From: an uncultured Nitrososphaerota archaeon | GTDB taxonomy: Archaea; Thermoproteota; Nitrososphaeria; Nitrososphaerales; Gagatemarchaeaceae | Direction: 5' to 3' | Assembly: GCA_963838925.1 (NCBI GenBank) | Contig: CAWISW010000002.1 | Coordinates: 96,001-160,000, forward strand | DNA: 64,000 bases | In this document: positions 1,196-14,886 of the stretch, one piece after another | Numbering within the stretch: the first letter of the stretch is position 1 | How the letters are laid out: every line of letters begins with the position of its first letter | Program-made: the position numbers and the translations under genes | The notes under the pieces: model-generated | Seen by the model: only the letters and a program-made list of their open reading frames with translations | Databases searched by the model: none | What the model was told of the DNA's origin: nothing

Positions 1196-2287
1196 CTACT
1201 GGATGAGTAGGCTTTCAGCAAGTTTGAGAAATTCGGCCTTGTCAGTTTTCAGTTCCCTCAATAACAGTTTCCATCTTTCGTGACGAAGCTCGGAATCTAT
1301 CGGTTCGAAAATAAGCTTCACCTTGGCCTTCTTCTCGGGATGCCTTAGTCTTAGCATCTTCAGCAGACTGAGAATCTCTTCTACCCTCCACAACTGGAGT
1401 TGACGAACGCCGTTCGAGTCTGGCTTGCCAAGATGGGCATGAAATCCAAGCATAGATAGCGACGATTGAACCCAGACCAGGAGTTCAAGGTTCTTATTAG
1501 TAAATGACATTCGAGGTTCGAACGCCCTATCGGCTCTTAGCCACAGTCTTCCTTCCGCGTCAAAAAGGCCTGCAAGATATCCTAACACAAATTCGACGCT
1601 CTCTACTCCAGCGGGAACTGTCAGTCTTCCTTCCAATAAGAAGCCAAAGCTCGCATCAAGTTCTGATTCAAAGGACCATTCGTATCCGGCCATTGTGGAG
1701 AGTCTTGGTCTTACCCTAACAGGACCATGCGGAACCATTAGTGATGTCAGGAGGTCAATCATTGCAGGGTGCGTCGAAGCCGTTCTTACTCTAATTGCTC
1801 TACCATGGCGCTTGACATTGAGATCACCGCGAGCTAGCCCCAGCAGGTACCCCTTCTGATAGGCGTCTCCTTCAAACGGAACCTTTTCGAACTTCCTCAC
1901 AGATTTGATTTGCGCTTCGACTTTGTCTCTCAGCGGTATTCCTCGTTTACGAAGATGGTTGAAGACAGAGACCGGGCTCACGACCTCTCCGGCGATTTGT
2001 TTCAGCGACTCTCCATTCTTGTACTTGGTTACCCAGACATCGACCATATCATCTGTGATTTTCCTGATATGCGCAGCGGGGTCGCGCCTTCTGATTCCGT
2101 TCCTCTTCAGATGATGCAATATCGTCGACTCGGCCGTCTTCTGACTCGCATACCTCAAGTCGTAGATCTTCGCAATCTTCGCAGCCGAGAGCTTCTGCTC
2201 AAGGTACAAGCGCTGGAGGTCGGCCTTTGTGGGCGGCCACTCAAGATTGGGTGAGTTGCTTGTCTTGGCGCCCTCTCCGTCAGTCAT
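1196..2287 (-). mobile_element. Free-standing double-motif LAGLIDADG homing endonuclease with N-terminal HTH repeats
   Basis: YLLGLARGDL and YLAGLFDAEG motifs. HTH-like segments LYLEQKLSAAKIAKIY and YKNGESLKQIA...VFNHLRKRG. Visibly more AT-rich than the flanks. Confidence 0.82.
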
Positions 2288-2390
2288 TCATTCGTTATTC
2301 TTGCAGACTATATGAACGGCAACGCTCGAAACCGGAATCGCCACTATTCGCACGTCGGTGGGAATTTGTCCGAAAATCCCCGGTAATACA

Positions 2391-2398
2391 TATATAAG
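2391..2398 (+). promoter_or_regulatory. TATA box upstream of the R15P isomerase-prs operon
   Basis: TATATAAG lies about 26-33 nt before the in-frame GTG at 2424. Confidence 0.55.
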
Positions 2399-2423
2399 CT
2401 CCTACGAAGGCGAAACGGTTCAC

Positions 2424-3416
2424 GTGGAAACCCTAAAGGACGGAAAAGAAGAATTTCCAAAGGTCTCTGTGGACGAAGCGTATGACAACCTAAAGTCGAT
2501 GCGCGTCCATGGCGCGGGGCGGATCGCGAGGTATGCGGCCCAAGCGCTGAGGGACTATGCAAAGGACGCCAAGGCGAAGACCTCCAGAGAGTACTGGGGA
2601 ATCGTCCTGAAGGCGGGGGAGAAGCTCAGGTCTGCAAGGCCCACTGCGGTCTCCCTTCCCAACGGCGTAAACTACGTCCTGTACGGCGGGAGGACCTCCT
2701 TCGAGTCCGGCGGGTCAGTGGAAGACATCAGGAACGCCACAGTTAACACCGCGAACGACTTCATCACGTCCAGCATCGAAGCCGTCAAGGAGATAGGAGA
2801 GATCGGGGCGAGGAGGGTCAAGAACGGAGACATCATAATCACACACTGCAACAGCGAGGCTGCCATGAGCATCCTGAAGAAGGCCTACGACATGGGGAAG
2901 GGCATCAAGGTCTACTGCGACGAGACCAGGCCCAAGTTCCAGGGGCACAAGACGGCAGCGACGCTCGCGGCATACGGCATCGACACCACGCTGATCTGCG
3001 ACTCTGCGTGCAGGGTGACCATGTCCGGCGCAGACAGGGCGATAGTCGGATGCGACGCCATCTCAGTCAACGGAGCCTTGGTGAACAAGATCGGCACCTC
3101 GCAGGTCGCCACGATCGCCCACGAAGCGAGGGTAAACTTCTTGGTGGCCGCTGAAACTTATAAGCTCGATTTCAAGACCTTGACGGGAGAATTGGTCGAC
3201 ATCGAGGAGCGCGACTACACGGAGATCGCCTCAAAGGAATGGATGACCCACAACCCGAAGGTAAAGTTCAGCAACCCAGTGTTCGACGTCACTCCGCCCG
3301 AGTACATCGACTTTTACGTAACGGAGAAGGGCATCGTCCCGCCCGGCGCGATATTCAGCCTGATGAAGGAGCTCTACCAGTACACAGAGGGAGCTCAGGC
3401 GAAGCCCGCCCATTAA
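2424..3416 (+). CDS. Ribose-1,5-bisphosphate isomerase (eIF-2B/MtnA family)
   Basis: RPTAVSL, THCNS (catalytic Cys), ETRP-x-FQG, VGCDAI (catalytic Asp), NKIGT and NPVFDVTP motifs. Next to RuBisCO. Start placed at GTG 2424, after the TATA box. Confidence 0.85.
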   Translation: METLKDGKEEFPKVSVDEAYDNLKSMRVHGAGRIARYAAQALRDYAKDAKAKTSREYWGIVLKAGEKLRSARPTAVSLPNGVNYVLYGGRTSFESGGSVEDIRNATVNTANDFITSSIEAVKEIGEIGARRVKNGDIIITHCNSEAAMSILKKAYDMGKGIKVYCDETRPKFQGHKTAATLAAYGIDTTLICDSACRVTMSGADRAIVGCDAISVNGALVNKIGTSQVATIAHEARVNFLVAAETYKLDFKTLTGELVDIEERDYTEIASKEWMTHNPKVKFSNPVFDVTPPEYIDFYVTEKGIVPPGAIFSLMKELYQYTEGAQAKPAH

Positions 3417-3432
3417 TCGGAGAACGAGTAAG

Positions 3433-4326
3433 ATGATAATCTTTGGCGGTTCTGCAGGCGAGACTCTAGCAGTCAGAGTGTCGCTCCTTACGGGAGCTAA
3501 GCTCGGCAAGGTCAAGAGGCAGAGGTTCCCAGACGGGGAGCAATACCTGAAGATCGAGGAGGACATCAAGGGGCAGGACATCGTATTCATCCACCCACTT
3601 GGAGGCAGGCCGGACGAGCTCATCATGGAGTACCTGCTCACGATGGACGCTTTTAAGAGCGCGAGCCCAAAGTCGATAAGCGTCGTCATCCCGTACTTCG
3701 CCTATGCCAGACAAGACGCTAGGTTCCACCCCGGAGAGCCCCTGAGCTTCCATCTGGTGGCCAAGCTGCTAGAGTCCGCAGGCCCGAGCAGGATATTCAC
3801 GATAGACGTACACCTCCAGAGGGTCCCGTCCCTGAAAGAGGTCTTCAAGGTCCCGGCCTTCAACCTGACGGCCGTCCCGTACATCGCGGAGTACATCAAC
3901 AGGATATACCAGCCGAAGAACCCGATCATCATCGGACCGGACGACGAGTCGGAGCAATGGGCGAAGGTCGCGGCAGCCAAGATCAAGACCGACTACGCGA
4001 TCCTCCAGAAGACCAGGTTCTCCTCAACGGAGGTCAAGGTCAAGGTCAAGGGCGGCGAGAGCGTCAACGTCAAGGGGAGGGACGCGATAATCATCGACGA
4101 CATCATCAGCACGGGCAACACCATCGTGGAGGCCGCGAACCTGGTGAAGAAGGCAGGCGCGCGCAAGATCTACGTAGGGTGCACGCACCCCGTCCTCAGC
4201 CTCAACGCGCTCCCGCTGATGTACAGCAACAACATAGAGGGCGTGGTAGGCACCGACACCTTCGCGGGGCCCATAAGCTTCGTGACCGTGGCGCCCGTGA
4301 TAGCCGAAGCGCTGAAGAAGAAGTAG
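3433..4326 (+). CDS. prs: Ribose-phosphate pyrophosphokinase (PRPP synthetase)
   Basis: FPDGE, VIPYFAYARQD, IIDDIISTGNT PRPP-binding loop and CTHPV motifs. Confidence 0.93.
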   Translation: MIIFGGSAGETLAVRVSLLTGAKLGKVKRQRFPDGEQYLKIEEDIKGQDIVFIHPLGGRPDELIMEYLLTMDAFKSASPKSISVVIPYFAYARQDARFHPGEPLSFHLVAKLLESAGPSRIFTIDVHLQRVPSLKEVFKVPAFNLTAVPYIAEYINRIYQPKNPIIIGPDDESEQWAKVAAAKIKTDYAILQKTRFSSTEVKVKVKGGESVNVKGRDAIIIDDIISTGNTIVEAANLVKKAGARKIYVGCTHPVLSLNALPLMYSNNIEGVVGTDTFAGPISFVTVAPVIAEALKKK

Positions 4327-4528
4327 AGTCGGACAACCGACCCTGGATTCTCACCGCTTCGTACGGCCATGCATGGCTATGGGCACCTCTAGGGACCTTG
4401 CGGTAGCTCGATTCCTATAGATCTCTCGCCGAAGCGAGCGAGAGGAGACGCGGCCGCAGAAGTGACTTTGTGAATAATGAGGAGGGGGCCCGATTAGGGC
4501 CTGGCCGAGCCTTGGTAACTCTGCCGAC

Positions 4529-4696
4529 TCAGAAGTTCGTCGCTGGGGCGCCGGAGTTCTTCAGGTAGTGGAGCTCGTAAGGCTTCCCGGCCGTTCCCAC
4601 GCAACACGTGCACCCGTAGTCCGCGCACTGCAGGGAGTTGTCGTGGGGGCATGACCCGCACGAGCAGAAGATGTCGCCCTTGATGTGGTTCTTCAC
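4529..4696 (-). CDS. Small Cys-rich metal-binding protein (55 aa), absent from the ORF track
   Basis: Hand translation: MKNHIKGDIFCSCGSCPHDNSLQCADYGCTCCVGTAGKPYELHYLKNSGAPATNF. The GTG start is preceded by a GGGGTG SD-like sequence and lies 14 nt after the RuBisCO stop. Codons are GC3-rich like the host's. Confidence 0.72.
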   Translation of the reverse strand: MKNHIKGDIFCSCGSCPHDNSLQCADYGCTCCVGTAGKPYELHYLKNSGAPATNF

Positions 4697-4710
4697 TATG
4701 AGCACCCCTT

Positions 4711-6138
4711 CTACTCCGACCGGAACATGTGCCTGTAGTCGCTCTCCTTCTTTCCGAGCTCAGGCACTGCGGTCATCGCGGAGGCGACCGCGTACTTTTG
4801 CCCGAAGAACTGGAGAGCCGCCTGCAGCTCGGGGTGGTCCTTGGCGTAGTCGTCGACAGGGATCTTCTTCATGTAGGCATCCACTGCCTGTCTCGCAGCG
4901 GTGGCGCCCGCCTTTGTCCCCCATGGGTGCCCGTGTACGCTCCCGCCGTTCTGGAGCGAGATGTCGAGCCCCATCAGGTCGAGCGAGTAGTGGTAGTTCT
5001 GCGGAGTGAGGCCGCCTGAAGAGACGCCAAACATCGGCTTGATGTGCTCCATCGGCCCCTGGATCGCGTCCATCACCTCTGGGATCTCTACGAACTTTAT
5101 CGCGTCTCCCAGCTTCCCTCTCGCAGTGCCTACGTGGATCAAGTCTCCGCCAGCTACCCTGCTAAGCCCCGCGATCACCTTGAAGCTGATCCCGTGCCTC
5201 GGGTGGCGCGTGAGCGCCGCGTGCGACGCCCTGTGGAGGTGGATTGGGACGTTAATGCTCGGGTCCTCCGCGAGCACCCTCAGCGAGGGATACCAGCTGC
5301 ACATGATGTTGAGCATCAGGCCCCTTGCGCCGTGCGCGATCATCTTGTCCGCTACCTCGAGGGTCCTCTCGGAGTCGACCGTGACCTCAGGCGCGTACAT
5401 GTAGTCGCCCTCAGGGTGGGCGCCCTCCGACTTGGCCTTGTCGAGAGCCTCGTAGACCTTCGCGACGCGGTCTAGGAGGGGGGAGCACCACTGGTTGTGG
5501 TACGTCTCGTCGTCCTTGAACGTGTCAACGCCTCCCAACGCGGCGTCGTAGAACTGCTGAGCGGCTCCCTGGTCGGTGACGCCCATCTTCGGCTTGATCG
5601 TGATGCCGACGTGAGGCCGTCTGCTCTTCTTGGTGCCGACTATGTCCCTCAGCCCTTCGACGCCGAACTTCGGCCCCTTGAAGAGCTTCAGGACGTCCTT
5701 TGGCAGCGTGAAATCTATCCATTTGCAGTTCGGAATCGGAGTGAACCCCATCCAGTTCCCAGTGACGAAGGTGAACAGGTCGGGGATCCCCCTGTTGTCC
5801 ATGTCCAGAAGGTAGGTCGGGAAGGCCACCTTGACCCACCCCGAGTGCTTCATAGAGCCTGAGGGGTCTTCATACTTCCACGAGTAGAGCTTTGCGGCGG
5901 TCTTGGTAGAGAGGTCGGTTGCCGTGGAGACATCGGTGAAAGTCCCGACCGACTGCTCTGCAGCGATGATGACTCCCGCCTGGTCGATCGTGACCCTCGG
6001 GTCGCACGTGATGAAGAAAGTCGCCAGGACGTTCTTGTCGACGTCGACCTTCTCGGGAGTGGTGGAGAACAGGTCCCCCCTGTCGTGCTCGACGCTTGGG
6101 GCGCTCCATCTCTTCTCAGTCATCGCTTCTGTTGTCAT
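4711..6138 (-). CDS. rbcL: Ribulose-1,5-bisphosphate carboxylase large subunit, divergent form III-type
   Basis: AAEQSVGT (E60/T65), GN (N123), TIKPK (K175/K177), DTFKDDE (K201/D203/E204), HLHRASH (H294/R295), HVGTARGKL (H327/K334), SSGG (S379/G381) and QNGG...GHP are all present. Confidence 0.9.
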   Translation of the reverse strand: MTTEAMTEKRWSAPSVEHDRGDLFSTTPEKVDVDKNVLATFFITCDPRVTIDQAGVIIAAEQSVGTFTDVSTATDLSTKTAAKLYSWKYEDPSGSMKHSGWVKVAFPTYLLDMDNRGIPDLFTFVTGNWMGFTPIPNCKWIDFTLPKDVLKLFKGPKFGVEGLRDIVGTKKSRRPHVGITIKPKMGVTDQGAAQQFYDAALGGVDTFKDDETYHNQWCSPLLDRVAKVYEALDKAKSEGAHPEGDYMYAPEVTVDSERTLEVADKMIAHGARGLMLNIMCSWYPSLRVLAEDPSINVPIHLHRASHAALTRHPRHGISFKVIAGLSRVAGGDLIHVGTARGKLGDAIKFVEIPEVMDAIQGPMEHIKPMFGVSSGGLTPQNYHYSLDLMGLDISLQNGGSVHGHPWGTKAGATAARQAVDAYMKKIPVDDYAKDHPELQAALQFFGQKYAVASAMTAVPELGKKESDYRHMFRSE

Positions 6139-6335
6139 GTGAACGAATTTTTTGGCGCCTCGGAGGTTATTTATGTTTTATCCGTTGCGTGGCGATTCGT
6201 AAGACGGTCTCGACGACAGGAGTCGAATCCTCGGAGGCCGTCCTCGAATTTGTCAACGAATTTTGGGCCGCGGTCCTCTCTAGGCATGATTCCGCCTTCG
6301 TTAAGCTTAAAACGGGGCCGCATTTTGGCGCCTCG
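6139..6335. promoter_or_regulatory. Divergent promoter between rbcL and the kinase-tkt-rpe-tkt-tal operon
   Basis: AT-rich TATA-like tracts at about 6168-6181 (minus strand) and TTAAGCTTAAAA at 6301-6312. TTTTGGCGCCTCG is repeated at 6150-6162 and 6323-6335. Confidence 0.55.
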
Positions 6336-7381
6336 TGGCTTCGGGCTTGGCGAGTCTTTCGTCGGACGGCTTGACCGGACTCCTCAAGAAATTCCAAGGA
6401 AAGCGGCTACTCGTCGTCGGTGATTTTCTGGTCAGCAGGTTTGTCGAGGTCTCAGCGAGGAAGCTAGCCCGCGAGGCGCCCGTTCCCGCAGGCGACTACG
6501 TGGGAGAGACGCTCCTCCCCGGCGGAGCCGCGAACCTCGCCAACGAGGTGGCATCCCTGGGCGGGTCGGTCTCTGTGATAGGGGCGGTGGGCGAAGACAA
6601 CTACGGGGTCTGGCTGAAGGAGGACCTCGCGAGGAACGGCGTCGGCACCGACGGGATAGTGGTCGACAAGACGAGACCAACCTCGCTCAGGACGTGGATC
6701 ATGGTAAACCGCCTGCACTACCTTCGCATAGACCAGGAGGTAAGGAAGGAGGTGCAGCTGTCGATCACAAAGTCCTTCGCTGCCTCCGCCGAGGCAAAGA
6801 TCCCAAACGTCGACACAGTGGTGTTCTCAGACTACGACAGGGGCGTGGTCACATCCTCGCTCATAAGCTCGGTCGTGGCCGCGGCTAGGAAGGCCGGCAA
6901 GATAGTCGTCGCTCAGCCCAAGGACAGGCACTACATGGACTTCAACGGGGTGACCTACGTGAAATCGAACCTGGGGGAAGCCACGCACGCGACCCAGATG
7001 GCGATGGTCAACGAGACCAGCCTGAGGAACATGGGTGTAAACCTTATGGGAAGGCTCGACTGCAAGGGGATCGTGATCACCCGCGGAGAAGAGGGCATGA
7101 CGGTCTTCGATCGCGAGCAGATAACCAGCTTCCCCCTCGCCTTCGGAAGGAAGAGCTTCTTCAACAAGGTCGGTGTGAGAGACGTCATGACGGGCGTGTT
7201 CTCCCTCGCGGTCGCAGCAGGCGGCTCGATAACCGAGGCGGCGTGCCTGAGCAACATCGCAGGGACCGTGAGGAGCGAGAAGCCGAGGACGTCCACTTTG
7301 ACGATCCAGGACCTGGAGAAGCGGTTGGGGTCGATGGACGACTTCCTGAACCGCATCTCCCAGATGCCGGTGAGGCGTTAA
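6335..7381 (+). CDS. PfkB/ribokinase-family sugar-phosphate kinase, RfaE domain I-like, with an atypical GVRD motif
   Basis: LVVGD, PGGAANLA, GAVGEDNYG, RID-x-E, SDYDRGV, N-x-x-E (NLGE) and ITRGEEGM motifs. The anion-hole motif reads GVRD instead of GAGD. Confidence 0.8.
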   Translation: MASGLASLSSDGLTGLLKKFQGKRLLVVGDFLVSRFVEVSARKLAREAPVPAGDYVGETLLPGGAANLANEVASLGGSVSVIGAVGEDNYGVWLKEDLARNGVGTDGIVVDKTRPTSLRTWIMVNRLHYLRIDQEVRKEVQLSITKSFAASAEAKIPNVDTVVFSDYDRGVVTSSLISSVVAAARKAGKIVVAQPKDRHYMDFNGVTYVKSNLGEATHATQMAMVNETSLRNMGVNLMGRLDCKGIVITRGEEGMTVFDREQITSFPLAFGRKSFFNKVGVRDVMTGVFSLAVAAGGSITEAACLSNIAGTVRSEKPRTSTLTIQDLEKRLGSMDDFLNRISQMPVRR

Positions 7382-7384
7382 GAT

Positions 7385-8209
7385 ATGGGCATGGCAACTT
7401 CGCAGGAGATAACGAGGCTGCAGGACATCTCGAGGAACACCAGGAAGATCATCCTCGAGACGCTGGCTGAGGCCGGGTCGGGCCACCCCGGAGGCTCGCT
7501 ATCAGCGGTCGAGCTCCTCGTCACGCTCTACTTCTACAAGCTGAGGCACGACCCCAAGAACCCGAAGTGGGCTGACAGGGACCGCTTCATTCTCAGCAAG
7601 GGGCACGGCGCCCCGCTGCTCTACTCGATCCTCGCCCAGTCCGGATACTTCCCGTTGTCAGAGCTAAAGTCCCTGAGGAAGCTTGGCGCGCTCCTCCAGG
7701 GCCACCCTGACATGGACATACCCGGCGTCGAGATGCCGGCGGGCTCGGAGGGCATCGGACTCTCGGTCGGCGTAGGCCAGGCTCTCGCCGCGAGGCTCGA
7801 CGGAAGGCCCACCAGGACGTACGTCCTGATGGGGGACGGAGAGCAAGGGGAGGGCGAGGTCTGGGAGGCTGCGATGTCGGCGTCCAAGTTCAAGCTAGAC
7901 AACCTCGTCGGCATGATCGACAGGAACGGAATCCAGCAGGACGGGCTCACCGAGCAGATCATGCCGCTCGAGCCGCTCGCAGCCAAGTGGCGCGCCTTCA
8001 ACTGGAACGTCATCGAGGTTGACGGCTACGACTACCTCCAGCTGATCGAGGCCTTCGACACGGCAGAGATGACGAAGAACAGGCCCACCATGATAATCGC
8101 CCACACCGTCAAGGGCAAGGGCATCTCCTTCATGGAGTGGTCACCGATGTATCACGGCACCGCTCCCACGAAGGAGAAGATGGAAGACATCTACAAGGAG
8201 CTAAAGTAG
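7385..8209 (+). CDS. tktA: Transketolase, N-terminal (TPP-binding) subunit
   Basis: SGHPGGSLS, DRDRFILSKGH, LQGHP, GDGE-x-x-EG and HTVKGKG motifs. Confidence 0.95.
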   Translation: MGMATSQEITRLQDISRNTRKIILETLAEAGSGHPGGSLSAVELLVTLYFYKLRHDPKNPKWADRDRFILSKGHGAPLLYSILAQSGYFPLSELKSLRKLGALLQGHPDMDIPGVEMPAGSEGIGLSVGVGQALAARLDGRPTRTYVLMGDGEQGEGEVWEAAMSASKFKLDNLVGMIDRNGIQQDGLTEQIMPLEPLAAKWRAFNWNVIEVDGYDYLQLIEAFDTAEMTKNRPTMIIAHTVKGKGISFMEWSPMYHGTAPTKEKMEDIYKELK

Positions 8210-8215
8210 GAAGGG

Positions 8216-8944
8216 ATGATGGTGGAGAAGACGATGCCGCTCGCGGAAATCAAGAGAAAGATCAAGATCGCCCCATCGATACTCGGCGGGGACCAGGCAA
8301 ACTTCGCGGCGGGGCTCGACATCGCGGTGAAGGGAGGGGCGGACCAGGTCCACCTCGACGTCATCGACGGCCACTTCGCCCCAAACATCACGTTCGGCCC
8401 GGGGACGGTGAAGGCCCTGAGGAAGAGGACCGACATGAAGTTCGACACCCACCTGATGATAGACGAGCCCGAGAAGTTCGTCGACAAGTTCCTGGACGCA
8501 GGGTCAGACCTGTTCTGCTTCCACGCAGAAGCGCTTACGGGGGAGCGCTTCGACGCCCTCTACTCGAAAATCCACGCGCAAGGTAAGGTGATAGGGCTGG
8601 CCTTGAAGCCCGCCACCGAGATGCCCGCGTGGGTGGAGCAGAGGCTGGACAAGCTCGACACCCTGTGCGTCATGACGGTGAACCCCGGATTCAGCGGTCA
8701 GACGATGATCATGTCGGTCATGCCCAAGCTGGAGAAGATCACGCAGATGCTAAACGACAAGGGTCTACCGATAGACATCGAGATCGACGGCGGAGTGGAG
8801 CTCGAGACGTTGGAGCACGTAGTCCGCCGTGGGGGCAACGTCCTTGTGGCGGGCGCTGGCGTGTACTACAAGCCCGACCCGATCAAAGCGGTCGGGATAC
8901 TCCGCGAGAGGGCAAAGCAGGCGGTAGCAGCGGGGGCAGCTTGA
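8216..8944 (+). CDS. rpe: Ribulose-phosphate 3-epimerase
   Basis: IAPSIL, HLDVIDGHFAPNITFG, DTHLMI, MTVNPGFSGQ and IDGG motifs. Confidence 0.96.
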   Translation: MMVEKTMPLAEIKRKIKIAPSILGGDQANFAAGLDIAVKGGADQVHLDVIDGHFAPNITFGPGTVKALRKRTDMKFDTHLMIDEPEKFVDKFLDAGSDLFCFHAEALTGERFDALYSKIHAQGKVIGLALKPATEMPAWVEQRLDKLDTLCVMTVNPGFSGQTMIMSVMPKLEKITQMLNDKGLPIDIEIDGGVELETLEHVVRRGGNVLVAGAGVYYKPDPIKAVGILRERAKQAVAAGAA

Positions 8945-8945
8945 G

Positions 8946-9905
8946 ATGCTAGAGAAAATGGGTGCAATGCGGACTGCCTACGGCGAGGCTCTCGTCGAGC
9001 TCGGCGCGAGCAACCCGCGCATCGTGGTCCTCGGCGCCGACACCACAGAATCAATGAAGTCGGGCATGTTCGGGGCCAAGTATCCTGACCGGTTCTTCAA
9101 CCTCGGAATAGCCGAGCAGAACCTCGTGGGGGTCTCCGCTGGGCTCGCCTTCGGGGGAAAGATCGCTTACGCAGGCACTTACGCCATCTTCGTCCCCGGA
9201 AAGTGCGTCGACCAGATACGCAACATGCTCTGCTACGCCGACCTGGACGTCAAGATAGTATGCTCACACGCTGGAATCACAGTCGGGCCTGACGGGGGCT
9301 CGCACGAGCAGGTCGAGGACATCGCGCTCATGCGGTGCGTGCCTCACATGAGGGTCGTCGTTCCCGCAGACGCCGTCGCGGTCAAGGGCATAGTCAAGGC
9401 CATCGCAGACATCCCGGGCCCCTTCTACGTCAGGATAACGAGGGGAGTCGTCAAGGGCTCCAACACCCCCATCGTCTACGAGAACGGCTTCGAGTACAAG
9501 CTCGGCAAGGCCAACGTGATCCGCGAAGGCAACGACGTCACGCTATTCGGGTGCGGGATAATGCTCCCGGAGGCGCTGAGGGCGGCGGAGTCCCTCGCCA
9601 CGAAGGGAGTCCAAGCCAGCGTCATCGACATCCACACCGTGAAGCCGATCGACGCGGAGACGATAATCAAGTACGCGAAGAAGACCGGCTGCGCCGTCAG
9701 CGCGGAGGAGCACAACGTGATGGGAGGGATGGGCTCAGCCGTCGCCGAGGTGCTGAGCGACCAATACCCGATACCGCTCAAGCGGGTTGGGGTCATGGAC
9801 ACGTTCGGCGAGAGCGGAGAGGCGCAGGAGCTCCTCAACAAGTACGGCCTGACCTCCGCCCACATCGAGGAAGCGGCGCGCCAAGCCATCGCGATGAAAC
9901 GATAG
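8946..9905 (+). CDS. tktB: Transketolase, C-terminal subunit
   Basis: GIAEQNL, DQIRN, GPDGGSH, TVKPID, EEHN and DTFGESG motifs. Confidence 0.95.
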   Translation: MLEKMGAMRTAYGEALVELGASNPRIVVLGADTTESMKSGMFGAKYPDRFFNLGIAEQNLVGVSAGLAFGGKIAYAGTYAIFVPGKCVDQIRNMLCYADLDVKIVCSHAGITVGPDGGSHEQVEDIALMRCVPHMRVVVPADAVAVKGIVKAIADIPGPFYVRITRGVVKGSNTPIVYENGFEYKLGKANVIREGNDVTLFGCGIMLPEALRAAESLATKGVQASVIDIHTVKPIDAETIIKYAKKTGCAVSAEEHNVMGGMGSAVAEVLSDQYPIPLKRVGVMDTFGESGEAQELLNKYGLTSAHIEEAARQAIAMKR

Positions 9906-9930
9906 CTTTATTAGAAAAATCTCGGGAAGC

Positions 9931-10614
9931 GTGCTCGAATTGAAGTTCTATCTTGATACCGCGAACCTAGCTTCAATCAAGAAGTACCACTCGATGGGGC
10001 TGGTCGACGGAATCACCACGAATCCCTCGCTGATCGTGAAGGAGGGCGGGGACTTCGAACAGACCATCAAGGCCATCGCCAAGGAGGTCTATCCGCATCC
10101 GGTGAGCGCCGAAGTCATCGCCACCGACTACGAAGGGATGGTGGCGGAAGGAAAGCGCAACAAAGCCTGGGCAGAGAACGTGGTCGTCAAGATTCCCATG
10201 ATACCCGAGGGAATGAGAGCGACGAAGACCCTCAGCTCGATGGGGATACCAATCAACGTCACGCTGATCTTCTCGGCCGTCCAGGGACTGATCGCGATGA
10301 AGGCAGGAGCGTCGTACATCAGTCCGTTCATCGGCCGCCTGGACGACATCGGCCAAGACGGAATGGGCCTCATCAAGGACCTGGTCGAGATAAGGAACAA
10401 CCAGAACTACAAGTTCAAGACTGAGATACTGGTGGCGAGCATCAGGCACCCCATCCACGTGCTACAGGCCGCGAAGCTCGGCGCCGACATCGGCACGATG
10501 CCCGCCGAAGTCATGGAGAAGATGTTCTCGCATCCTCTCACCGACAGCGGGTTGAAGCGCTTCCTCGACGACTGGAACAAGGCGAAGAAGGAAAAGCCCT
10601 CGCTGACCGTCTGA
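9931..10614 (+). CDS. tal: Transaldolase (small TalC/FSA-fold type)
   Basis: LDTAN, TTNPSL, VVKIP and NVTLIFS motifs. SAEV (Glu) and SPFIGR (Phe) are the transaldolase rather than FSA signature residues. Confidence 0.92.
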   Translation: MLELKFYLDTANLASIKKYHSMGLVDGITTNPSLIVKEGGDFEQTIKAIAKEVYPHPVSAEVIATDYEGMVAEGKRNKAWAENVVVKIPMIPEGMRATKTLSSMGIPINVTLIFSAVQGLIAMKAGASYISPFIGRLDDIGQDGMGLIKDLVEIRNNQNYKFKTEILVASIRHPIHVLQAAKLGADIGTMPAEVMEKMFSHPLTDSGLKRFLDDWNKAKKEKPSLTV

Positions 10615-10700: not shown

Positions 10701-11459
10701 TCACGGCGCGGCGGCGTCCGCACTAGAAGATCGCAAGTTTCCCGCGAGATAGACCGCCACGTAGATCGACGACAGGATCACGAGCGAGGAGAAGAGAGCT
10801 CTGTGCGAATAGTCGAACGATGACGTGAAAATGTACACGCTCTTGTATCCCACGTATTCGAGGAAGACGAATCTCAACCCAAATCCTAAGGTGCTGGCTA
10901 GGAGGAATACGTCTGCTTTCATCTTCAGCGTACCGGCCGCGAGGGAACTGACGCTATAGAAGAACGGGATGAAAGTGGATATGAAGATTGAGAAGTGGCC
11001 GTGCTCGGCTATCCATCCGTCTGACTGTTGGATGTCATTTTCAGAAATGTGGACGTAGCGCAGCCCTTTCAAGAGCAGCGGTCTGGGGACAAGCCTGCCC
11101 GCCGCGTACTCTATCGGAAATAGGGCGGCCGCCAGGCACACAAGAAACGTCGTATAGGGATTGAATATCCCTGTCGCCGACAGAAAGCCATAGGCCGGAA
11201 CGAGGACGTAATCGGGGACTGGCGAGATCCAGATGCTCATGAACATGCCCAGGTACCCTGCTATCGAAAATGGCCACGGCAGGCTCTCCTGGTTGAGACT
11301 ATAGGACGACACATTGACAAAATTGAAATCTGCGTTCAGCAACGCCAAGACGCTCACCGATAGTGCGAGGATCGAAGTTACGAAGAGATAGTGCCGGTAT
11401 TTGCCCCACCGTGCGAGCCCGTCCAGTCCTGACCCAATGGCGGCATTCGAAATCGGCAC
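10701..11459 (-). CDS. DedA/VTT-domain membrane protein
   Basis: Several TM segments and a DedA-like pattern SPVPD...AYG and HG...IFISTFIP...SLAAG. Confidence 0.7.
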   Translation of the reverse strand: MPISNAAIGSGLDGLARWGKYRHYLFVTSILALSVSVLALLNADFNFVNVSSYSLNQESLPWPFSIAGYLGMFMSIWISPVPDYVLVPAYGFLSATGIFNPYTTFLVCLAAALFPIEYAAGRLVPRPLLLKGLRYVHISENDIQQSDGWIAEHGHFSIFISTFIPFFYSVSSLAAGTLKMKADVFLLASTLGFGLRFVFLEYVGYKSVYIFTSSFDYSHRALFSSLVILSSIYVAVYLAGNLRSSSADAAAP

Positions 11460-11545: not shown

Positions 11546-11977
11546 CTATTTCGAGATGACGCTCTTGACGTCTGCGAGGTAGAGGCTGAGCCTGCTGACC
11601 TCGTACCTCAGCATCTCAAGGTCCATTGTGCTGTAGTAGTTCTGGTTGTTCCTCACGTAGCTCGAGATGGCCCCGTATCTGTCGTAGAAGTGCTTCGGGG
11701 CAAGCTCGGGCCACCTCGACTCTATCTCCCTCAGCGCGAGCCTCCTGTCGTAGCTCCCCTTTGGGACCTTGTGCAGCAGGTGCTCTACCAGGATGTCTGT
11801 CACCTGTGATAGCACTATCCATGACTTCTCGGCCGCCTCCCTGAACTGGAGGACGCCGCCGGGGCCGCCCCTAGCGTAAGTGAAAGTCCTACCCTCGTAG
11901 GATGTGTTCTCCGCCGCCTTCAGCAAGGCCGGGAGCTCGCTCATGAGCTTCTCGGAGTTCTTCCAAAGCTCCGGCAT
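11546..11977 (-). CDS. Hypothetical protein, PaREP1/HEPN-like
   Basis: AAEKSW...TD-x-L...S-x-x-RR-x-x-LRE...YDRYG pattern resembles the archaeal PaREP1 family. Start placed at ATG 11977. Confidence 0.5.
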   Translation of the reverse strand: MPELWKNSEKLMSELPALLKAAENTSYEGRTFTYARGGPGGVLQFREAAEKSWIVLSQVTDILVEHLLHKVPKGSYDRRLALREIESRWPELAPKHFYDRYGAISSYVRNNQNYYSTMDLEMLRYEVSRLSLYLADVKSVISK

Positions 11978-12146
11978 ACTCACGGCGTAGTTCTGAGTGT
12001 TTAGCTTCTTGCTCACGAGAAACCTCGGTCCTTTGACGACATTTAAGAATATTGCGACGAACGAAAGGCCGCCCCGCCGACGGCTGACGAAAGGGCCGAC
12101 CGCCGCTAGCATTTAAAGCGCCAAGCCTCGGGAAGGGCGCGAAGAA

Positions 12147-12771: not shown

Positions 12772-14886
12772 ATGACCAACAACCGCCCCGCCCTCCTCGC
12801 GAAGCTCAGGGCAGCCCTGAAGGACAGGGAGTCCTCTGACAAGTTCTGGGACGCCATGACCAAGGCGAGGGCGAACAGGACGGCCCTTCTAGAGAGGGAG
12901 AAGCTCGACATGCAAGCCATCAAGCAGTCCAACAAGGCCATCAAGACGGCGGCCGTGGCCGACAGGACCCTGGTCGACGAGTTCGCGGAAAACGTCCGTA
13001 AGAACGGCGGGAGGGTGTTCATGGCCAAGACAGGGGGCGACGCCATCCGGTACGTCGAGGGACTCTCGAAGAGGGTGGGTGCGAAGCTGATAGTGAAGGC
13101 AAAGTCGCTCACTTCGGACGAGATAGAGTTCACCCACGAGCTCGAGAAGGTCGGCGTCCGCTCGGTCGAGACCGACCTGGGGGAGCTCATCATCCAGCTC
13201 GCCGGGGAGACGCCCGTACACCTCGTCATGCCCGCCGCACACAAGTCGGTGAACGAGATCGCCCAGCTGGTCTCGGGTGCCGTCGGGAAGGACGTGCCGC
13301 CGGAGGACCAGGCGATCCTCGGGGCAGTGAGGGCATACCTGAGGGGGCTCTTCCTCACAGCCGACATAGGAGTCTCTGGGGCAAACATCGGGGTCGCCGA
13401 GACGGGCTCAATCGTCATCGAGACGAACGAAGGGAATGGGAGGCTGGTCACGAGCGTCCCGAAGATACACCTAGTGATAATCGGGATGGAGAAGATCGTC
13501 CCAAAGTGGTCGGACGCCACGTACCTGGTGAAGGGGCACAGCGCGAGCGCGACCGGCCAGAACATGACCGTCTACGTCTCGGTGATAACCCAGCACGGCC
13601 CTCTCGCGGGCTCGACGGAGGGGAGGGAGTACCACGTCATCATCCTCGACAACGGCAGGAGCAAGATGAGAGACGACCCGTGGTTCTCGGACGCGCTGAA
13701 CTGCATCAGGTGCGGCGCGTGCATGAACGTTTGCCCAACTTACGGCGTCGCCGGTGGCCACACCTTCGGCTACATCTACCCGGGGCCCATCGGCATCCCA
13801 TGGACGGCCGAGGTGCACGGCCTGGACAAGGCGACCTTCGCGCACCTCTGCGTTTCCTGCGGCCTCTGCAAGGAGATCTGCCCCGTCGACATCAACATCC
13901 CCATGATGATAGCCAAGGTCAAGGAGGAGGAGGTCCACGAGAACGGGCAGCTCGCGGTCAACGACTTCTTCATGTCGTCGGAGTCGCTCGCCAAGCTCGC
14001 GAGCGCGACCGCGCCGGCCTCCAACTGGCTCCTTCGCAGGGCGGCCACCAGGGCGGTGATGGAGTCCCTCGCTGGTGTCGACAGGAGGCGGACCCTCCCC
14101 TCATTCGCCAGGAAGAGGCTCAGGGCGAGGATATCGCCCCTGGGGACGGGGACCGGGGACGCAGGAAGGGTGGTGTTCTTCCCAGACATCTACGCCGACT
14201 TCAACGACCCGGAGCTAGGCGTCAGGGCGGTGAAGATCCTGCTCGCGCTCGGCTACAAGGTCGAGGTGCCGGGCCTGAGGTGGAGCGGGATGCCTTACAT
14301 CTCGTACGGGGACATCTCCAAGGCGACCGCCGTGGCGAAGGGCAACCTCGAGGCGCTGAAGAAGTACCTGGATCAGGGGTACTCCGTGGTGTCCACTGAG
14401 CCGACCGCCGTCTACATGCTCAGGGAGGTCTACCCGACCCTCGTGCCCGGCGAGCTCGCCGAGAAGGCGCGCACCATGAGCTTCCCGTTCTTCGGATTCA
14501 TCCAGGGCGGGCTCGGCGGCCTCGGGTTGAAGCCTGCCTTCCCCGCCGACGAGGCGATCGGGTTCCACATACCGTGCCACGACAGGTCCGTCTCCAGCGG
14601 CAAGCCCGCGATAGCATTCCTTGGGGCGGCAGGGTACAAGGTGCAGGTCGTGGAGAACGGCACCTGCTGCGGCATGGCCGGGACGTTCGGCATGAAGCAC
14701 GGCGACCTGGGCTACAACCTCTCTATGGAGGTTGGAGACCACCTCTTCCGCCTGCTGAAAGAGAGCGGACGAAAGCTGGTCGCGACCGAGAGCAGCGTCT
14801 GCTCCATGCAGATCGCCGACGGCGCCAGCCTCAGGGTAGTCCACCCGCTCCACGCTGTCGAAGAGGTCTCGCCCCAACGCCGGTGA
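12772..14886 (+). CDS. LutB-like Fe-S protein fused to a CCG (LutA/GlcF/GlpC-like) region; 2-hydroxyacid dehydrogenase
   Basis: ETDLGE-x-IIQ, HLVMPAAH, NEGNGR, CIRCGACMNVCP, CVSCGLCKEICP, HIPCH and TCCGMAG motifs. Confidence 0.85.
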   Translation: MTNNRPALLAKLRAALKDRESSDKFWDAMTKARANRTALLEREKLDMQAIKQSNKAIKTAAVADRTLVDEFAENVRKNGGRVFMAKTGGDAIRYVEGLSKRVGAKLIVKAKSLTSDEIEFTHELEKVGVRSVETDLGELIIQLAGETPVHLVMPAAHKSVNEIAQLVSGAVGKDVPPEDQAILGAVRAYLRGLFLTADIGVSGANIGVAETGSIVIETNEGNGRLVTSVPKIHLVIIGMEKIVPKWSDATYLVKGHSASATGQNMTVYVSVITQHGPLAGSTEGREYHVIILDNGRSKMRDDPWFSDALNCIRCGACMNVCPTYGVAGGHTFGYIYPGPIGIPWTAEVHGLDKATFAHLCVSCGLCKEICPVDINIPMMIAKVKEEEVHENGQLAVNDFFMSSESLAKLASATAPASNWLLRRAATRAVMESLAGVDRRRTLPSFARKRLRARISPLGTGTGDAGRVVFFPDIYADFNDPELGVRAVKILLALGYKVEVPGLRWSGMPYISYGDISKATAVAKGNLEALKKYLDQGYSVVSTEPTAVYMLREVYPTLVPGELAEKARTMSFPFFGFIQGGLGGLGLKPAFPADEAIGFHIPCHDRSVSSGKPAIAFLGAAGYKVQVVENGTCCGMAGTFGMKHGDLGYNLSMEVGDHLFRLLKESGRKLVATESSVCSMQIADGASLRVVHPLHAVEEVSPQRR

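Follow-up and report, generated by a model that had tools for sequence, protein, structure and literature searches.

How does an archaeon that encodes a form III RuBisCO (the carboxylase/oxygenase of ribulose-1,5-bisphosphate), but neither phosphoribulokinase (PRK) nor AMP phosphorylase, obtain ribulose-1,5-bisphosphate (RuBP)? [quoted passage not shown] The organism is a Gagatemarchaeum-like soil thaumarchaeon, and its assembly (coded G000) comprises 1.84 Mb in 3 contigs and is 87% complete. The answer that we consider probable, if not assured, is that a RuBisCO cassette has been placed beside a pre-existing core PPP operon and works as a variant of the pentose-bisphosphate pathway independent of PRK and AMP phosphorylase, likely a CO2-incorporating shunt. 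Gene identities, distribution, paralogy, and synteny were computed here, and from them we infer all metabolic flux, the step from phosphoribosyl pyrophosphate (PRPP) to R15P, and the physiological role. The genomes throughout are incomplete assemblies of metagenome-assembled genome (MAG) grade, and functions were read from sequence and context.

The original prediction had described R15P isomerase and prs on the forward strand, rbcL on the reverse strand, and kinase-tktN-rpe-tktC-tal again on the forward strand, and all eight genes were confirmed in this order and orientation (Table 1). Intergenic gaps measure 1 to 25 nucleotides within the kinase-tal unit and 16 nucleotides between isomerase and prs. 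The window indeed contains no gene for PRK, AMP phosphorylase, or ribose-5-phosphate isomerase (rpi), and tRNA and Rfam scans of it found nothing. For the first two enzymes the absence holds genome-wide and in all RuBisCO-bearing genomes of the genus: PRK family PF00485 had no match in this genome or in the 7 further ones (0/8), a control search with the same family having matched 11 of 14 reference genomes, and no AMP phosphorylase exceeded its cut-off in any of the eight. The best score of the window's genome on the AMP phosphorylase model TIGR03327, 33.6 bits versus a cut-off of 535, belongs to TrpD. These absences are limited by the 87% completeness of the genome. Ribose-5-phosphate isomerase is a different matter, with rpiA located on another contig (169 bits versus a cut-off of 126). 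Because it is present, the earlier argument that a PRPP route would also explain the lack of rpi falls, and the regeneration enzymes transketolase, epimerase, isomerase, and transaldolase are all found in the genome.

The RuBisCO reads as a divergent lineage of the archaeal form III enzymes. Its catalytic motifs (N-domain E/T, GN, KPK, KDDE, HxHRxxH, HVG, GKL, SGG, and GG..GHP) match the solved form III structures 2cwx, 8dht, 6hun, and 1geh residue for residue, which bears out the earlier statement that they are intact. In the tree, it falls among archaeal enzymes within an 18-row thaumarchaeal clade (SH-aLRT support 100) on a long stem, and it scores 288.3 bits on the type III equivalog TIGR03326, below the cut-off of 497. 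This clade joins soil records with MAGs of marine heterotrophic Thaumarchaeota, whose enzymes are 72 to 74% identical to that of the window. The RuBisCO records AcS1-13 and palsa_1368, 90 to 93% identical, are MAGs that PMC10640624 assigns to Gagatemarchaeaceae, listing the former under Ca. Gagatemarchaeum. The open reading frame (ORF) downstream of rbcL has no match to a Pfam small-subunit family; a genome-wide rbcS search was not run. The window's family is represented by 97 species genomes, 26 of them rated high-quality, and 14 of the 97 encode RuBisCO: in 8, all in the window's genus, it is at least 90% identical to the window's enzyme, and in the other 6 it is of a different type, only 34 to 36% identical.

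Which genes accompany this RuBisCO? R15P isomerase (TIGR00511) is over cut-off in 15 of the 97 family genomes; 13 of these are among the 14 that encode RuBisCO, and in the fourteenth (G192) rbcL is cut by the contig end. The isomerase gene adjoins rbcL in all genomes where contiguity allows. A family-wide eIF2B-like gene was considered as a hidden R15P isomerase and rejected, the gene being MtnA. The translation of the cassette Prs shows RQD, DxH, and DDIISTGNT, which we take to be the characteristic Prs motifs. It is only one of two Prs proteins in the genome. The other, encoded on a different contig, is 30% identical to it, and the Prs of the marine gene clusters is 52 to 54% identical. A tree of 30 sequences separated 20 RuBisCO-linked Prs from 10 housekeeping copies of the family with support of 98/95 and placed the cassette Prs as sister to the marine-cluster Prs with 99/98, with the caveats that the housekeeping rows all come from one family and that the genome's own second copy forms a long branch. 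Copy number follows the same division: of the genus's 8 genomes with RuBisCO, 7 give 2 to 5 Prs matches, some of them fragments, compared to 0 or 1 in 13 of its 15 RuBisCO-less genomes. Genome G184 is a weak case, its module copy being split and its other matches reaching at most 165 bits. By sequence, then, the Prs beside RuBisCO is a dedicated second paralogue, and it accompanies this RuBisCO clade in both the soil and the marine lineage, which supports a branch from ribose-5-phosphate (R5P) through PRPP and R15P to RuBP.

Only in those members of the genus that bear RuBisCO does the isomerase-prs-rbcL string stand upstream of the kinase. It was seen there in 5 complete loci besides the window; another locus is truncated at a contig end, and one genome has the pieces on different contigs. 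In one relative rbcL is inverted, so that all genes point in the same direction. Together with the extra Prs paralogue, the recurrence of the same RuBisCO clade beside Prs, R15P isomerase, and PPP genes in a marine lineage supports the view that this unit is a real functional cassette.

To what extent is the linkage kept beyond the genus? A scan of species genomes with the RuBisCO alignment gave 80 loci, 17 of the thaumarchaeal clade and 63 others. The clade loci are relatives rather than independent cases, and the soil records probably overlap the family genomes counted above. In 15 of the 17 clade loci, which belong to two lineages with different gene order, both tkt and tal are found no more than 7 kb from rbcL, whereas outside the clade this region holds a related gene in only 2 of the 63 loci (tal alone in one, a tktC-like gene alone in the other). 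Prs is within the same distance in 11/17 clade loci versus 6/63 others, and Baldrarchaeota, Methanomethylicota, and a Nitrososphaerota record likewise have a Prs-R15P isomerase-rbcL string (3 to 4 of the 6 Prs-holding loci outside the clade). The examination of synteny in related MAGs thus found the RuBisCO-PPP linkage conserved in soil and marine lineages.

The marine lineage comprises basal (pSL12-like) Thaumarchaeota, which possess the orthologous RuBisCO of the same clade. Their clusters resemble the window in that Prs and R15P isomerase are adjacent, tkt, tal, and rpe lie within 7 kb, a PaREP1-like gene stands beside rbcL, and AMP phosphorylase is lacking. They differ in gene order, with prs-R15P isomerase (-), rpe (+), and tkt (-) followed by tal, a gene of the SDR family, rbcL, and the PaREP1-like gene (+); in a fused transketolase of 670 amino acids; in PPP proteins only 30 to 49% identical; and in the SDR-family gene that takes the place of the kinase, while the Cys-rich mini-ORF of the window was not detected. 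The pathway logic has already been published for these organisms. In a preprint by Reji and Francis (bioRxiv 10.1101/2019.12.22.886556), the PPP is proposed to yield R5P, then PRPP, then R15P by an abiotic step or a Nudix hydrolase, with RuBisCO leading on to gluconeogenesis, and several pathway genes are said to be co-located on the same contigs. The same scheme for the marine group appears in PMC7300363, and rbcL is among its most expressed genes according to PMC13374868. For soil, PMC10640624 notes rbcL, R15P isomerase, and prs as adjacent in three Gagatemarchaeaceae topsoil genomes. The original prediction knew of no description of such an operon, and on this point it has been overtaken: the cycle and its co-location, as well as the three-gene adjacency, are in print in these sources. 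As in the cluster of Reji and Francis, the window combines an orthologous RuBisCO with co-located Prs, R15P isomerase, and PPP genes, AMP phosphorylase is lacking, and Nudix homologues are present.

In the proposed flow, the non-oxidative PPP, with RpiA encoded elsewhere, would supply R5P, which the cassette Prs would convert to PRPP. PRPP would lose one phosphate to give R15P, through a Nudix-type or other hydrolase or spontaneously; the isomerase would turn R15P into RuBP, and RuBisCO would join RuBP with CO2 to form two molecules of 3-phosphoglycerate (3-PGA). The kinase would have no step in this flow. This R5P-PRPP-R15P-RuBP branch was one of two that the original prediction offered, and it is the best reading because PRK and AMP phosphorylase were not found, the cassette Prs is an extra paralogue, and the same genes are co-located in the marine lineage. 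It shares R15P isomerase, form III RuBisCO, and the conversion of a ribose bisphosphate to 3-PGA with the Thermococcus-type pentose-bisphosphate (AMP) pathway. The difference is at the entry, where a Prs paralogue stands and AMP phosphorylase and ribose-1-phosphate (R1P) kinase were not found, so that Prs would replace either of these enzymes in the archaeal pentose-bisphosphate pathway.

Several observations weigh against this proposal. No enzyme for the conversion of PRPP to R15P was found, and none of the ten NUDIX genes of the genome lies in or near the cluster. The completeness of the genome means that absences are not proof. Since the RuBisCO clade has a long stem and the score stays under the type III equivalog cut-off, a changed RuBisCO substrate is conceivable. 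A close relative (L130) keeps the Cys-rich mini-ORF and the PaREP1-like gene with its rbcL, yet none of the Prs, isomerase, or PPP genes lies within 7 kb. Finally, because the soil genus owes the adjacency of cassette and PPP genes to one ancestor (proteins at least 87% identical), it could stem from a single chance insertion there.

The second RuBisCO type of the family brings a different role to mind. It is canonical form III (597.9 bits on TIGR03326), and its rbcL adjoins R15P isomerase, followed in 4 of 5 loci by a PfkB gene resembling ribokinase or R1P kinase; Prs is present at one of these loci and an adjoining kinase-PPP operon at none. The canonical cassette is found at loci L109 to L112 (genomes G208, G161, G229, and G201). 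Locus L108 (G155) differs, and its rbcL contains a TAG codon in frame. In classical salvage, R1P or AMP derived from nucleotide or nucleoside ribose would be converted to R15P and RuBP, and the adjacency of Prs and PPP genes in the window would be incidental. By default, archaeal form III enzymes have this role (PMC9700705), and the family's own canonical cassette and the one PNP-family phosphorylase of the window's genome are consistent with it. For the RuBisCO of the window, we regard salvage as distinctly unlikely: none of the eight genomes has an AMP phosphorylase over cut-off, the cassette includes no ribokinase-like kinase, the genome's only other PfkB protein matches no NCBIfam model, and this RuBisCO clade is accompanied by a Prs paralogue of its own.

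If RuBP is to be supplied through Prs and the isomerase, what does the kinase do? It is encoded in 82 of the 97 family genomes and in all 26 high-quality ones, far beyond the 14 genomes with RuBisCO. In all 20 loci fetched it lies beside tkt and/or rpe, and in all 17 of them that belong to the family it is directly followed by tktN; the 3 loci from other families of the class, whose RfaE-like kinases are 28 to 38% identical, keep the association with PPP genes. Hence, kinase-tktN-rpe-tktC-tal is a family-wide core unit independent of RuBisCO, and the kinase is outside the cassette.

The spacer between rbcL and the kinase gene accords with this division. Its 196 nucleotides contain two separate conserved TATA-like boxes about 128 nucleotides apart. 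Apart from one substitution, the rbcL box does not vary among the 6 divergently arranged genomes; it is unique in the window and was matched in 0 of 100 shuffles; it is a promoter predicted purely from its position. The kinase box, also unique in the window, is kept in all 7 aligned relatives, including the one with inverted rbcL. The two units are therefore predicted to have separate promoters, since there are two distinct boxes and that of the kinase persists where rbcL is inverted. Both predicted promoters would be leaderless. Of the earlier claim that they share a divergent promoter, the divergent layout stands and the shared promoter does not. Between the boxes, the core columns of an inverted repeat are conserved in the 6 divergent-arrangement spacers and were not aligned in the inverted relative. 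The repeat could be a candidate binding site for a regulator, and co-regulation of the two units is possible.

In sequence, the kinase is HldA/RfaE-like. Its best model is TIGR02198 (RfaE domain I/HldA), whose cut-off it misses, followed at 169 bits by the bifunctional HldE model; among models for other sugars the highest score is 55 bits, for ribokinase, and the ATP-R1P kinase model gives 32 bits versus a cut-off of 330. The closest solved relative is HldA 4e84 (E 8.7e-30). With HldA/RfaE domain I, the D-glycero-beta-D-manno-heptose-7-phosphate kinase, it shares a full-length match, the catalytic Asp, and the EAPVP motif. It differs from that enzyme in its score, in the motif changes GAGD to GVRD and LDRY to VSRF, in its location in a PPP operon, and in the patchy presence of GmhA-like genes. 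The GmhA-like gene of the window's genome (98 bits versus a cut-off of 209) is 360 kb from the kinase, in a polysaccharide cluster, and homologues occur in 48 of the 97 family genomes and 15 of the 26 high-quality ones; none was found in the remaining 11 high-quality genomes, all 26 of which have the kinase. In families f9 and f10 of the class and in one f2 genome, a kinase-like gene lies 3.5 to 6 kb from a GmhA-like gene, the f2 kinase-like frame carrying a stop. Matches resembling rfaE domain II are weak; one is CoaD, and the other may be an FAD synthase. The kinase could act on heptose-7-phosphate, or it could phosphorylate C1 of some other sugar phosphate of the PPP, for example fructose-6-phosphate (F6P) or sedoheptulose-7-phosphate. 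A literature search linking heptose-7-phosphate kinase, archaea, and the pentose phosphate pathway returned no relevant paper. The family is reported in PMC10640624 to have no phosphofructokinase (PFK).

Two further observations concern these genes. The kinase of this family has a conserved C-terminal tail ending in PVRR (window positions about 7340 to 7378), which is absent from more distant RfaE-like homologues. The polysaccharide cluster (L107, C2:460000-469000) encodes a flippase, the GmhA-like SIS protein, two NDP-sugar epimerases/dehydratases, and a 431-amino-acid protein with a C-terminal transaldolase/FSA domain, and it may be a heptose-type sugar pathway.

The second branch of the original prediction had the PfkB kinase convert ribulose-5-phosphate (Ru5P) to RuBP. 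A kinase acting either in this PRK-like manner or on C1 of R5P to give R15P directly would make the divergent layout functional, and chemistry offers some encouragement: HldA, its closest characterized relative, phosphorylates the anomeric C1-OH of a sugar with a terminal phosphate, the protein departs from HldA at the sugar-contact position (VSRF) and at the anion hole (GVRD), and its gene adjoins rbcL wherever contiguity allows (7/8 genomes). Its distribution tells otherwise. With RuBisCO in 14/97 and R15P isomerase in 15/97 genomes, R15P or RuBP would have no consumer in most genomes that carry the kinase and would be a dead end there. Other families of the class have the same kinase-PPP operon, and inversion of rbcL leaves the kinase box in place. 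A search of 5 marine genomes that carry the orthologous RuBisCO-PPP cluster, whose completeness is unstated and for which there was no positive control, turned up a kinase homologue in none of them. As an HldA/RfaE-like, family-wide protein not found in the marine cluster genomes, the kinase is therefore unlikely to stand in for PRK. We rejected the roles of PRK substitute and R5P 1-kinase as the main explanation on grounds of distribution, and we judge it very unlikely that the kinase takes part in this pathway at all.

With the kinase set aside and supply through PRPP preferred, does carbon flow in a closed cycle or in a shunt? In an autotrophic or mixotrophic Calvin-type cycle, put forward in the original prediction and by Reji and Francis, 3-PGA would pass through gluconeogenesis to F6P and glyceraldehyde-3-phosphate, from which tkt, tal, rpe, and rpi would regenerate R5P and, via PRPP and R15P, RuBP. 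All non-oxidative PPP enzymes are present, the RuBisCO-PPP linkage is kept in two lineages, and in PMC10640624 the genes are interpreted as serving carbon fixation. The genome also has one class I aldolase-like protein, below every cut-off for fructose-1,6-bisphosphate (FBP) aldolase, and one IMPase-family protein that is a possible FBP phosphatase (classes I and II of which were not searched). However, neither the class V FBP aldolase/phosphatase nor a class II aldolase was found in it (PGK and GAPDH were not searched), and no lithotrophic energy source was found, with 0 matches to NiFe hydrogenase (carbon monoxide dehydrogenase was not searched). RuBisCO is patchy in an otherwise organotrophic family, and the use of Prs in place of PRK would by our reckoning cost an extra ATP equivalent per turn. 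These considerations leave the closed cycle rather unlikely. The searches suggested with the original prediction also covered the 3-hydroxypropionate/4-hydroxybutyrate cycle, and the N-domain of 4-hydroxybutyryl-CoA dehydratase was not found in the genome. The missing dehydratase domain, FBP aldolase/phosphatase, and NiFe hydrogenase, together with the description of Gagatemarchaeaceae as organotrophic in PMC10640624, favor heterotrophy, and autotrophy is not favored.

The transaldolase-variant Calvin cycle of Thermodesulfobium, which reportedly uses PRK, is comparable in combining form III RuBisCO with transaldolase, transketolase, and epimerase. Here, in contrast, the PRK family is absent from all eight genomes, and there is no evident autotrophic context.

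Two conserved genes linked to rbcL were overlooked by the original prediction. One is the Cys-rich mini-ORF, which begins 5 to 14 nucleotides past the rbcL stop and has its likely start (MKNH) at 4696, giving 55 amino acids. The frame is open in each of the genus's 8 genomes with RuBisCO, where it directly follows rbcL, and also in another relative; in the one inversion of rbcL it moved along. Across 11 sequences, seven Cys and one His never vary. It has no Pfam match, only 2 clusters of similar size were found among 1.84 billion representatives, and it was not detected at 9 marine loci. The ORF appears to be restricted to this RuBisCO lineage, and in the explanation that we favor it would be co-transcribed with rbcL. 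The other, the PaREP1-like gene, is found no more than 7 kb from rbcL in 15 of 17 clade loci and in 0 of 63 other loci; in the marine lineage it stands directly downstream of rbcL. Its product has the invariant motifs TY.RGGP.G, YDR, YDRY, and RNN and a predicted helical-bundle structure (mean confidence score, pLDDT, 82.5). The PaREP1/HEPN assignment is a weak one drawn from three weak signals: an ESM Atlas value of 0.92 to PaREP1 clusters, a Foldseek hit to the HEPN structure 2hsb (E 0.057, probability 0.99), and Pfam PaREP1 matches below threshold in two homologues. The Gly-rich and Arg/Tyr/Asp motifs could bind phosphate. That either this protein or the Cys7His mini-protein is the missing component of RuBP supply, as a PRPP-to-R15P phosphohydrolase or as an accessory or regulatory factor of RuBisCO, is a speculative long shot; if it were true, a complete, genetically encoded "PRPP shunt" would be common to soil and marine heterotrophic Thaumarchaeota. 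A literature search found no paper joining PaREP1 with RuBisCO.

Other genes surround the locus. The cassette is flanked at 1196-2287 (-) by a gene for a 363-amino-acid protein with a weak LAGLIDADG_3 domain, which is 42 to 66% identical in relatives whose adjacent genes are about 90% identical. At 10701-11459 (-), a gene for a VTT/DedA-like (UptA-like) membrane protein separates tal from the PaREP1-like gene; it is found in only some relatives. Further downstream, a 704-amino-acid LutB-like fusion of LUD, 4Fe-4S dicluster, and CCG domains (12772-14886, +) is followed by a class V aminotransferase, an arrangement kept downstream of the cluster in relatives.

Table 1. Genes and predicted regulatory elements of the RuBisCO-PPP locus (window positions).
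Feature	Position	Strand	Evidence or remark
R15P isomerase (e2b2 type), first cassette gene	2358-3416	+	TIGR00511 376.6 bits, cut-off 314
Prs (ribose-phosphate diphosphokinase), second paralogue	3433-4326	+	TIGR01251 282.9 bits, cut-off 113
Cys-rich small ORF, 58 aa	4529-4705	-	in prs-rbcL gap
RuBisCO large subunit, 475 aa	4711-6138	-	PF00016 + PF02788
TATA-like box for rbcL	6164-6174	-	26-36 nt upstream of rbcL ATG
Inverted repeat, CGAC-N6-GTCG core	6210-6226	.	between the two TATA-like boxes
TATA-like box for kinase	6297-6313	+	22-33 nt upstream of kinase GTG
PfkB kinase, HldA/RfaE-like	6335-7381	+	TIGR02198 224 bits, cut-off 345
tktN, transketolase N-terminal half	7385-8209	+	PF00456, E 2.2e-54
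rpe, ribulose-phosphate 3-epimerase	8216-8944	+	NF004076 201.5 bits, cut-off 165
tktC, transketolase C-terminal half	8946-9905	+	PF02779 + PF02780
tal, small (type 3B-like) transaldolase/F6P aldolase family	9931-10614	+	TIGR00875 282 bits, cut-off 246
PaREP1/HEPN-like helical protein, likely start near 12019	11546-12112	-	weak family signals

So far, the PRPP route has rested on work with extracts and on genome inference. The present analysis contributes a dedicated Prs paralogue that soil and marine lineages share, grounds for setting the kinase aside as a PRK substitute, and two linked conserved genes. The result is a short, testable list of enzymes for reconstitution and no new kind of carbon-fixation pathway; the cluster supports a route put forward earlier for marine relatives and does not amount to a new Calvin-type cycle. 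For an aerobic heterotroph of this kind, it would serve as a CO2-incorporating sugar and pentose shunt, through which hexose and pentose phosphates would reach 3-PGA without PFK.

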